DNA of 64,000 bases, taken from positions 25,033,256 through 25,097,255 of the forward strand of contig CM119265.1 in assembly GCA_051294375.1 (NCBI GenBank), read 5' to 3'. Both the position numbers and the translations under genes were made by a program. This DNA is from Paraspadella gotoi (lineage: Eukaryota; Animalia; Chaetognatha). Shown piece after piece: positions 28,172 through 38,591 of this stretch (position 1 is its first letter; each line of letters begins with the position of its first letter). A model generated the notes under the pieces. It had not been told where the DNA came from. It searched no databases and worked only from the letters and a program-made list of their open reading frames with translations.

Positions 28172-31100
28172 ATGGTCTGGCAACTCGACGTGGACGAAAC
28201 CGTCCGCCTGGACGCCCATCGGATCGACCGCAACTCCCCAACGGTCCACCCCGGACGCCTTCGAGACGTCGCCCTCAATTCGGTCGTCGACGTCGCCGTC
28301 AAGAAGATCTACGTGGGGGCGTCGATGGAGGAGAAGGCGAAAGTGGCGAAGGAGGCCGTCGTCATGCGAGGAGCGGGAGAACATCCCAACATTCTCAAAC
28401 TCTTGGATTACAGGTTTTGGGTCGAGTGTCTCTTTCTCTCTTCGTCTATTTGTCCAATAGTCTGCTTGTTTTTCTGTTTGTTTAATTTTTGTTTGTATAT
28501 CTTTTTGTTTGTCTATTTTTCTCACTCCTTGTCTGTCAGTTTGTCTATTCATGTCTGTAGGCCTGTTTATTTGTCTGTTTTCTCTATACCTTTAAGCTTT
28601 ATCTTTCTGTCTCGTTGTGTCTGCCTCTTTTTATGTTACTCTTTAAAAAAAAATCAGATCGAAGTCAATCAATCAATCAACCGCATCCCCTTTCTTTCCC
28701 ATCATGAATCCTCCAGAGAGTTGGAGCGCGAAGTCTACGTGATCACGGAGAAGTGTCTTTGCACCTTTGAAGACATCTTCGCCGGGGAGTTCGAGGAAGT
28801 GAGGAACGAAATCGTGGAGACGCTGGGGAAGATTAAGATCGCCTCTCACATCCTCGACGGGGTGTGCCACCTCCACTCCATCGTCAAGGGTGAGAAAAAA
28901 AAGAGGGAATGGGCTCGTCCGGGAGTCGAACCCGGGACCTCTCGCACCCTAAGCGAGAATCATACCACTAGACCAACGAGCCAATTGCATATGCTTCGAG
29001 AATTTTTGGGTTTAAGAAACAGCTCTGTGTAAAACTGTTTAAAAATACACAGAAAAGGTGTATAAATAAGATAAATAAAATACATAAGAGTGATCACAGG
29101 GATAGGAGAGAAAATATGAAGAGGGGCTCGTCCGGGAGTCGAACCCGGGACCTCTCGCACCCAAAGCGAGAATCATACCACTAGACCAACGAGCCAATTG
29201 AGTATGTTTAGAAATTTTTTTGGTTTAAGAAACAACTCTGTTTAAAACTGCTTTAAAATACACAAAAAATGTAACATATAAGAGTTATCACAGGTACAGG
29301 AGAGAAGACGTGAAGAAGGGGCTCGTCCGGGAGTCGAACCCGGGACCTCTCGCACCCAAAGCGAGAATCATACCACTAGACCAACGAGCCAATTGTGTAC
29401 AATTAGAAAATTTGTTGGTTTAAAAAACAACTCTGTGTAAAACTGCTTTAAAATACACAAAATATGTAATATATAAGAGTTATCACAGGTATAGGAGAGA
29501 TGACATGAAGAAAGGGCTCATCCGGGAGTCGAACCCGGGACCTCTCGCACCCAAAGCGAGAATCATACCACTAGACCAACGAGCCAATTGTGTATGATTA
29601 GAAAATTTGTTGGTTTAAAAAACAACTCTGTGTAAAACTGCTTTAAAATACACAAAAATGTAATATATAAGAGTTATCACAGGTATAGGAGAGAAGACGT
29701 GAAGAAGGGGCTCGTCCGGGAGTCGAACCCGGGACCTCTCGCACCCAAAGCAAGAATCATACCACTAGACCAACGAGCCAGCCGACACTAAATAATTAAA
29801 TATAGAAAATAAAAAGAGGGAAAATGCCGGAAAAAGAAAAATCCAAACAAAAACAAAACTAAAAAAACTACCTAACCCCCTCCTTCCCCCCGGGTGGGGG
29901 GCGCAGGTCACGAAACGGTCCATCGCGACATCAAAGCCGGCAACATCTTCGTCCACCGCGACGAACGCCTCAACTTCGTCGTCAAAATCGGAGACTTTGG
30001 AATCTCGAAGGCGATAGACGTTGGACGAGGGAAGACGACCACCAATCCCTTGCAGGGGACCCAGGTTGGGATTGAAAGGAGGGAAATGCAGACTGACGGA
30101 CAGATTGACAACTTTGACACATTCTGGACGGAGCTGTCTTCCTTTTACGCTTTCTGTTTAACTTTCTTGATATTTTTTTAGATTTTTAATGAATGACTCC
30201 CTAACAAGAATATATTCGTAGTAATTTAATTGAAAACATTAATTAATCTTGGGTTGTAGAGATGATTCCGTTTTATCCAGAAAAAAAGACTAACCTCCCT
30301 CGCGGAAAGACCGTTCGCATTCCTTGTCACCCTTTCTTAGCCACAGAGACGGAAAGACTGACATGCCGACAGACAGACATATAAACACAGAAGACAGGCA
30401 AAGACAGGTATATTTTTGCTTGTACCTAGATCAAAAAACTTTAAATCCAAGCTTTTTTCCTCTAGAAACAATATTCTAAATATCTTGTCAGCTTATTGTT
30501 GAATTATTTTCCTTTTTCTTTTTTTTCTTTTTTTCTCGTTCTGTTAATTTAAATATTTATATTTTGTTGAATTGTAAACTGTACAATTTATCTGTAATGC
30601 TGTATGCCCTTTTGAATGTACTGTTTCAACTAATTGTTGTAAACGAATAAAACACATATATATTACAAACAGACAACAGACAGATAGATTATCCGACGGA
30701 TAAAAAGACTAACCAACAGCTTGACTAAGACAGACAGACCGACAGATCCCCAAAATCCATCGTCTCTCTCCCCCTCTCCAAAGTCCTACATGGCGCCGGA
30801 ACTCTTTCGGAACTTCGCCGCCGGTCACGTGACTCTCGAAGAGGCCAAGATGGCCGACGTTTACGCCGTCGGCATCATCGTCGGCCAAATATTCGCCGAC
30901 GGGAAACATCCGTTTGGCGGGAAAGACGTTTTGTACACGCAGCTGAATATGAGAGAAGATAAGAGAGATCCGATGGAGGTAAGATGGAGGGGAAGTTGCT
31001 GATTGGCCGGTCGTTCGTCGAAGGAGCCAATCAGAAAAGGGAGACGAAAGACGAGAGAAAACGAATTTGGGGACTCAAAGTTTGGACTCTCTCAATTTTA

Positions 31101-37100: not shown

Positions 37101-38591
37101 TTCTCCTTCGCAAAGAAAAGTCGGGCAAATTCTCCTCGTTTTTGTCGGTCAAGTGCCCGACAAAGACGCATCACGAGGGCATCTACGCGGACGACTTGCA
37201 CTGGTTCGTGGGATCTTTGGCTTTCGTGGATTCGCTCAATCTCGTCGAGTATTTCAAGCGAAACGCGGGTCATTGGGGGGTCAAACTCAGGTAAGGGGGG
37301 GGGGAAGAGAATGGGGCCAGAGTTTCGTTGTTTATGTTTTTTTTAAAAACAAACATTTATGTATAATTTAACTGTTTTCCTTTCTGAAAAAAAAACTATA
37401 GCCTCAATACGAAAGCTAAATGAAAGCTGAAAACAGTTTTGCATTGAATCTTGTTTTTTTAATTAGCTAAAATTTTTTTGAGATAAGTGATTCCTAGTTT
37501 TTATCAATTACGATAACAACAATGAAAACACAATAGTAATCGCAACGACTAAGACGAAATTAGTTGTTACTTCAGCTGAGACCGACCCTGAAAAGATATG
37601 ACAATATATCTTATATCTCCCCCCCTTCCACCTCCTCCTCCTCTTACCTCCTTCCAGATCCCCCGTCCCCTCACCACCCTCTGGCGCCGCCCCTCAATTC
37701 CACCACGCCCTCCCGCCTGCCTCCACTCTCTTCGTCGCCATCCAGACCCGCGTGGCGGGGTCGTCGGCGCACTTGACGATCCACTCGGGCGACGTGGTGC
37801 AGGCGGTGTCGACGGAGGCTTGGAACGATCTCGGCACGGGCTGGTACTCGGCCAAGAATCTGACGCGACATTCCGAGGTCGGCGCCTGCTTGTCCAACAC
37901 GCTCGTCCCAAAGGACTGGCTGCGGGAGGGCGTCGGGGAGGAAGAGGCCGAGAGGCTCCTCGCCGATCAACCCGTCGGCACCTTCATGATCCGGAGAGGG
38001 TCTCGGAGCGACGGTCGAGGCGGCGGCGGCGGCGTTGGCAACGGCAGCAGCGGCGGCAACGGCGTTCGCGCCGCAGAGAAGAAGAAGCCTCAAGCGAACC
38101 GTCGTTGGGAACTTCAAGGAGACTACAGCTTCATGCTGTCGTTGAAGACGGCCGACGGTCGAGCGGCGCACGTGGGGATCTTCGAGGCGACGGAGCGATA
38201 TACTCAGGTGCTTCGAAGAGCGCGGAGGACGTTGTCGCACGTGATTGTAAATAAGTTCACGCTATTTTAGATATGTATCGCGCGAGATATAATAAATTAA
38301 TTAATTAAGTAAACAAAAAATGAATTAAATTAACGAAGTTTGTAGGCATTCGTCTAAACCTAGATAGTGGATAACTTTCCTCACACTTTCATTGAATTTC
38401 CTTCACAGGGAACCGTCTGGGGAATTAAATTCGAGAGAGACTTTATCGACGTCTTCAACCTCGTCGATTATTACCGGAAAAACAAAGGAACATGGGGATG
38501 TTTGTTGACTCAGCCCTGTCCCCGAGTGAGGGCGAAGAAGTCGCTGAAAAAAGAGCAATCCTTGGATTTGGATCTCGGGATTTTCGATTAG
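34150..38591 (+). CDS. Pro-rich region plus three tandem SH3-SH2 pairs; exons 34150-34574, 34981-35164, 35262-35444, 35859-36075 (1-nt frameshift near 35904), 36482-36646, 37045-37290, 37658-38207, 38409-38591; either C-terminal half of the kinase-KEN protein or a separate gene
   Basis: SH3-like YRLGD..ARNERTGQTGLVP, AAKDY..EELNFLEGD..NSRTGRRG, HLTIHSGDVV..GWYSAKN; SH2-like WYHG..GSFLMR..FKSVVDLVAHY, FYLG..GDFLLR..LNLVEYF, EAERLL..GTFMIR..VFNLVDYY; intron phases consistent. Confidence 0.85.
36780..36997 (+). repeat. Dispersed repeat family A, intronic copy
   Basis: Shares cttgattgaaagcttg, gtccaaagtcagggg and attaaatgaat.ga.taatt blocks with 48400-48610. Confidence 0.7.

Follow-up and report, generated by a model that had tools for sequence, protein, structure and literature searches.

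We suggest that a locus of Paraspadella gotoi, lying on the + strand between 28172 and 38591 of a 64,000-nucleotide window (the whole stretch of DNA analysed here, contig CM119265.1, in whose positions all coordinates are given), is one gene of 15 exons for a soluble kinase-KEN ribonuclease with three SH3-SH2 units that would dock on tyrosine-phosphorylated proteins, a reading that we hold with slightly better than even confidence. Its two halves can be named more firmly: judged by sequence, the locus encodes a kinase and a KEN RNase domain of the IRE1/RNase L type, and its C-terminal exons are three Src-like SH3-SH2 units. That the two halves form a full fusion is probable, and we place reasonable confidence in it. 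The window DNA is rich in microsatellites, has GC-rich exons and contains ten N gaps, and the following 15 exons can be drawn with GT-AG ends.

Exon 1, 28172..28413, + strand: ATG and kinase N-lobe; Pfam PK_Tyr_Ser-Thr E 7e-5, the match beginning past the G-loop positions
Exon 2, 28717..28889, + strand: kinase hinge region, in frame with exons 1 and 3; no Pfam kinase match alone
Exon 3, 29907..30064, + strand: catalytic loop HRDIKAGN and DFG; Pkinase E 1.3e-7
Exon 4, 30784..30978, + strand: APE, alphaF and GKHPFG; Pfam kinase E 0.007
Exon 5, 31231..31379, + strand: end of the kinase C-lobe; no PDB match for the read-through version
Exon 6, 31542..31724, + strand: first half of KEN, aligned to the homologues P0001 and P0003 in the spliced comparison; alone, E 0.24 to P0001
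Exon 7, 32180..32377, + strand: KEN core with RNLETH (R-x4-H); Ribonuc_2-5A E 2.2e-7
Exon 8, 34150..34574, + strand: conserved post-KEN segment, Thr/Ser/Pro-rich linker and second conserved segment; donor 34574 in phase 2
Exon 9, 34981..35164, + strand: SH3-1, whole inside the exon, ATG at 34982; SH3_1 E 0.034, nebulin and Fyn SH3 E 0.5-1.3
Exon 10, 35262..35444, + strand: first half of SH2-1, FLMR arginine kept; SH2 E 2e-4
Exon 11, 35859..36075, + strand: last part of SH2-1, then the beginning of SH3-2; the frame changes near 35886
Exon 12, 36482..36646, + strand: SH3-2; SH3_9 E 0.0065
Exon 13, 37045..37290, + strand: SH2-2, FLLR arginine kept; SH2 E 8e-4, PLC-gamma2 SH2 E 2.7e-4, Grb2 E 0.0016
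Exon 14, 37658..38207, + strand: SH3-3 and first half of SH2-3 (FMIR arginine) with a Gly-rich insert; Fyn SH3-SH2 E 5.8e-4, SH2 E 0.0015
Exon 15, 38409..38591, + strand: end of SH2-3, aligning with the end of SH2-2, and stop; AATAAA at 38718

Both domains of the kinase-KEN module, which an original prediction made on this DNA had already called, match Pfam (kinase at best E 1.3e-7, KEN E 2.2e-7). Exon 7 alone scores 31.5 bits against Ribonuc_2-5A (PF06479), above the curated cut-off of 23.3, and P0001 and P0003 score 51.5 and 42.5 bits. In the KEN catalytic motif RNLETH (R-polar-x3-H), the R, N and H are invariant in all three sequences; it aligns with the motif RNLGEH of RNase L, the protein that the KEN alignment also matches best in the PDB (4o1o, E 0.12). 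The arginine, the polar residue and the histidine are those named as needed for catalysis in the main text of the HEPN survey (PMC3710099). The kinase is followed directly by KEN, as in IRE1, with exon 5 broken or shortened as assembled, and it keeps the VAVK lysine, the alphaC glutamate, HRD, DFG and APE. We take its catalytic loop, HRDIKAGN, to be that of a Ser/Thr-type kinase. The G-loop has lost its glycines, and the kinase probably acts above all as a platform for dimerisation. Among structures, exon 4 finds yeast IRE1 as its best kinase match (E 0.29) and exon 1 finds tyrosine kinases (E 0.3-0.9), none of them significant. The product has no transmembrane segment (maximum hydropathy over 19 residues 1.13). 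Upstream, the segment 27000-28171 contains nothing coding-like, and eight candidate stretches yielded no family match, with neither a luminal domain nor ankyrin repeats among them; since eight N gaps lie upstream, this negative is not absolute.

As to the C-terminal exons, the predicted (SH3-SH2)x3 arrangement held up: three SH2 and two SH3 pieces match Pfam, and the third SH3 matches Fyn in the PDB. The SH2 pieces (PF00017) reach E 2e-4, 8e-4 and 0.0015, one of the three being above the cut-off as a fragment, and every SH2 keeps the phosphotyrosine-binding betaB arginine (FLMR, FLLR, FMIR). For SH3 none of the three exceeds the profile cut-off; two are weak Pfam matches and the third is recognized through the Fyn SH3-SH2 structure. 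The three units are mutually homologous, with pairwise z values of 6.2, 13.5 (unit 1 against unit 2) and 17.6 and 0 of 300 shuffles in each comparison. The SH3 ligand motifs (ALYDY, WW, PxxY) are degenerate and, by eye against the Fyn alignment, the proline-binding surface is mostly lost; because of this loss, the SH3s probably serve as spacers or clamps.

Whether these halves belong together depends on two joints. At the first, the KEN exon (32180-32377) ends in a phase-0 donor, caa/gtattt, after which the sequence turns AT-rich, with AATAAA at 32423 and 32475, an N gap at 33943-34139 and a phase-0 acceptor at 34150 with an ATG right after it, all as the original prediction had described. With exon 7 as query, HMMER returned two matches from 1.84 billion representatives, P0001 (an ENA protein of 168 aa, 61% identical to exon 7) and P0002, a coral cubilin-like protein that was dropped as a repeat-driven false match; P0001 as query then found P0003, an ENA protein of 408 aa on a 3298-nt contig. 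Both P0001 and P0003 carry KEN and run on in one frame into exon 8 sequence (E 6e-8 and 7e-9, the latter over 122 residues), with alignments that are gapless across the joint. The spliced model scores 316 against P0001 and 317 against P0003, versus 233 and 226 for read-through, and the 33 residues that follow KEN in the two proteins find their best of 4260 six-frame windows at exon 8 (83 and 75, versus at most 41 elsewhere). Since both homologues continue without a gap from KEN into exon 8, we consider this exon part of the kinase-KEN gene and the 32377-34150 splice well supported by the alignments.

The predicted splice thus gains two independent homologues, and the caveat then raised, a separate kinase-KEN gene ending near 32450, is weakened. 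We regard as very improbable a related alternative, in which the locus chiefly yields a short kinase-KEN isoform: the 32377 donor would be read through, the transcript would end at AATAAA 32423/32475, and a zinc-finger gene (described below) would stand between it and all exons downstream. The donor is indeed weak (1.8, below all 12 control donors), read-through meets a stop after 31 codons, and two AATAAA stand within 100 nt where 0.17 would be expected per 120 nt; but AATAAA is common in the introns (12 in 6772 nt), and P0001 and P0003 keep the segment encoded from 34150 right after KEN. The start of both P0001 and P0003 apparently coincides with the exon 5/6 boundary, and a single frame in each spans exons 6-8, which suggests that they are genomic exons of organisms lacking introns 6 and 7. 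By sequence, these divergent KEN proteins with a common C-terminal extension would make up a small conserved family. Searches among longer proteins with exon 7 and exon 14 returned no homologue, weak blanks, the exon 7 query having also missed P0001; two metagenome scans and one viral scan gave 127, 93 and 125 pattern matches, none confirmed, and no related locus, and the ESM Atlas gave no usable match. A single-sequence AlphaFold model of P0001 had low confidence (pLDDT 43) except in the post-KEN helix, which reached 60-72, and the end of exon 8 was predicted as a plain helix (pLDDT 78), which is uninformative.

For the fusion foreseen by the original prediction, this first splice stands, but it adds the linker exon alone; the SH3-SH2 half hinges on the second joint, 34574-34981, where we judge splicing to be fairly probable from the sequence signals. 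The donor at 34574 scores 7.7, inside the range of 12 undisputed donors (3.4-11.4), ranks 16 among 454 GTs and lies at a drop in GC; its phase 2 fits acceptor 34981, and the gap of 406 nt is close to the median intron (402 nt, n=14). P0003 stays homologous all the way to the distal end of exon 8 (z 8.2, 0 of 2000 shuffles; best of 4260 windows, 48 versus 36) and has no stop at that place; it continues for 86 more residues that are unlike the rest and poor in acidic residues, a tail that looks like intron read-through, as expected of a continuing gene. The AT-rich start, the three AATAAA and the ATG after the acceptor are gene-end signs that this gap has in common with 32377-34150; we discount them because the earlier gap shows them too, yet the homologues make it an intron. 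One sequencing run in the form of contigs, of presumed type, contains 0.44 of 889 words sampled over 29880-38600, where the exons of that stretch together would account for 0.31 and the zinc-finger ORF for 0.06; we do not count this as evidence on the joints.

A number of observations weigh against the single gene. Left unspliced, exon 8 runs through 146 codons before it meets an in-frame TAG at 34588-34590, only 13 nt past the 34574 donor; the 406-nt gap is 16% GC and holds three AATAAA; and acceptor 34981 is weak and is followed by an ATG (34982) and then a complete SH3. The tail of P0003 is unmatched to exons 9-10 (919 of 1000 shuffles score as high), and no homologue has the SH3-SH2 part attached. 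A split of SH3-1 across the joint was considered and rejected, with 686 and 898 of 2000 shuffles scoring as high. Away from this joint, there is the weakness of the 32377 donor, exons 5 and 11 fall out of frame when spliced at their best acceptors, and the PDB matches of the kinase to IRE1 and of KEN to RNase L are not significant alone. The stop, the AATAAA, the GC-poor gap, the weak acceptor and the ATG with its complete SH3, along with four PxxP motifs in the linker exon and the lack of any homologue with both parts, speak for two adjacent genes, possibly co-transcribed: an 8-exon kinase-KEN RNase ending at TAG 34590 and a 7-exon (SH3-SH2)x3 adaptor starting at ATG 34982, which could still bind the PxxP motifs of the kinase-KEN tail. 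We think this arrangement unlikely, though worth serious consideration. It would leave merely 391 nt for a 3' end, a promoter and a 5' end, and it would have to accommodate a well-scoring donor, in the right phase, at the change in composition; like warning signs proved false at intron 7, and P0003 has no stop at the corresponding place.

The one-gene reading must also face the state of its reading frame. Fifteen exons can be drawn, as had been predicted, but the product of ~1150 aa announced with them has no open frame: the join with acceptors 31231 and 35859 is 3451 nt long, contains 17 stops and is closed. Among eight splice combinations tried, one gives an open frame, that with acceptors 31278 and 35915, which encodes 1115 aa. 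From its strong acceptor, 31231, exon 5 is out of phase with exon 4 and has a TAG (31275-31277) in the frame needed by exon 6; it is open solely from the weaker acceptor 31278, and no single frame in it is fitted well by the codon model. An extended exon 4 (donor 30994) was tried as a means to mend the phase and rejected, the donor scoring -1.7 and the TAG staying in place. In exon 11, one frame switch near 35886 raises the codon-model score from 11.6 to 20.7, and the exon is open solely from acceptor 35915. Use of the rescue acceptors shortens the kinase C-lobe by about 16 residues and SH2-1 by 19, the latter being the 19 codons lost from exon 11. The breaks in exons 5 and 11 may possibly reflect assembly indels, alternative acceptors or decay.

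It is conceivable, if improbable, that the last of these applies, so that a fused gene existed and the copy here is decaying or a null allele with both breaks real. Exon 5, with its TAG and no single fitting frame, and exon 11, with its switch, speak for decay, and the rescue acceptors are weaker and appear to remove parts of folded domains. Against this, the remaining 13 exons have open frames, with the key residues of the kinase, KEN and SH2 preserved. A neprilysin/ECE-like M13 peptidase exon at 39376-39571 (- strand; Pfam E 1e-5, ECE-1 E 4e-4), from a gene convergent with the kinase-KEN locus, also fits no single frame and apparently has an internal frame change, which may point to assembly indels; a PDB search with its second frame gave nothing. 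Elsewhere in the window, long irregular CT/GA and A-rich repeat tracts occupy 7100-10400, with a recurring spacer of ~70 nt, and 53400-57700; their appearance is that of noisy consensus, which matters for how much trust the assembly deserves.

Returning to the single gene that we favor, its best explanation is one in which we infer the linker-to-SH3 splice, phosphotyrosine binding, and frame breaks that are either assembly errors or bypassed. A soluble kinase-KEN RNase would be brought to phosphorylated receptor tails by multivalent SH2 binding, and crowding on the phosphorylated proteins would pair the kinase-KEN modules and turn on RNA cleavage. Clustering by receptors as the trigger had been part of the original prediction, and we retain it as a proposal, dimer-driven activation being postulated by analogy with IRE1 and RNase L. 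In IRE1, according to the abstract of PMC4536996, RNase activity is coupled to the back-to-back dimer. The two conserved segments of exon 8, which are predicted to be helical, might hold the RNase inactive or help pairing. A defence role, in which signals from an immune or adhesion receptor lead to RNA shut-down, would be the most likely use; intact function of the encoded protein is uncertain. More broadly, and with a confidence that falls a little short of even, we posit a phosphotyrosine-gated RNase in an animal lineage, with a triple SH3-SH2 sensor through which clusters of receptor tyrosine kinases trigger cleavage; it would be a family, since P0001 and P0003 keep the linker.

Set beside known systems, the locus resembles IRE1/ERN1 (yeast Ire1p, PDB 2rio, 3fbv) in the order of a Ser/Thr-type kinase and KEN, in its intact HRD, DFG and APE and in the GKHPFG segment. 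In contrast to IRE1, its product starts at the kinase, no signal peptide, luminal domain or transmembrane helix being found among the upstream candidates or by hydropathy, and it has a glycine-less G-loop, an extra C-terminal linker and, probably, (SH3-SH2)x3. RNase L is a pseudokinase; the kinase of the locus keeps HRD and DFG, alongside its degenerate G-loop. The two have in common a soluble kinase-KEN module and the alignment of RNLETH with RNLGEH (PDB 4o1o); they differ in the ankyrin repeats, which were not found upstream of the locus, and in the sensor, which for RNase L reads 2-5A and for the locus is a C-terminal candidate predicted to read phosphotyrosine. The SH3-SH2 units follow the Src-family plan of SH3, short linker and SH2 (Fyn PDB 1g83; SLAP2 4m4z), unit 3 matching Fyn, with the distinction that there are three in tandem, that their SH3 ligand surfaces are degenerate and that they come after a Ser/Thr-type kinase-KEN, while those of Src-family kinases precede a tyrosine kinase.

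KEN fused to a kinase is also among the architectures in the main text of the HEPN survey of Anantharaman et al. 2013 (PMC3710099), whose table gives ankyrin, CCCH, UBI and BRCT as KEN partners, plus solo KENs, and which predicts defence roles for lineage-specific KEN copies. The term 'SH2' occurs 0 times in that main text, and the supplement may list more; the accessible portion of PMC4342544 names no RNase or KEN fusion. Full-text literature searches, with subscription papers mostly outside their scope, found no KEN-SH2 protein, no paper combining KEN domain, SH2, RNase L and IRE1, and none with 'SH3-SH2-SH3-SH2', in keeping with the earlier statement that no KEN RNase with SH3-SH2 modules was known. 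The locus is a probable addition to the kinase-KEN RNases, one for which the sensors of IRE1 and RNase L were looked for and not found. Of the two kinase-KEN RNases that have been studied, IRE1 is switched on by unfolded proteins and RNase L by 2-5A; phosphotyrosine gating, if true, would be a third input. Receptor tyrosine signalling would then be wired straight to RNA decay, and invertebrates might have in it a stand-in for the OAS-RNase L arm of immunity; the protein would also lend itself directly to the design of an RNase reporter of tyrosine-kinase activity.

Two introns of the locus hold further genes on the opposite strand. Neither they nor the TAG at 34588-34590 figured in the original prediction.

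Five tRNA-Pro genes (one AGG, four TGG), 28911..29779, - strand: in intron 2, called by ARAGORN; TRF gives a 195-bp tandem array with 93% matches
Intronless C2H2 zinc-finger ORF of 6-7 fingers, 33095..33649, - strand: in intron 7; zf-H2C2_2 E 4e-36, zf-C2H2 in 6 stretches

With exon 8 assigned to the kinase-KEN gene, the zinc-finger gene counts as nested in intron 7. P0001 and P0003 have no intron there, so intron 7, with the gene it carries, may have been inserted later. Together with the SH3-SH2 units, the zinc fingers point to an animal genome. Downstream of the locus, at 44244-46826 on the + strand, a likely intron parts two long ORFs of AT-rich sequence (220 and 564 aa) that match no convincing Pfam family; from their many hydrophobic stretches, they would appear to encode an orphan multipass membrane protein.

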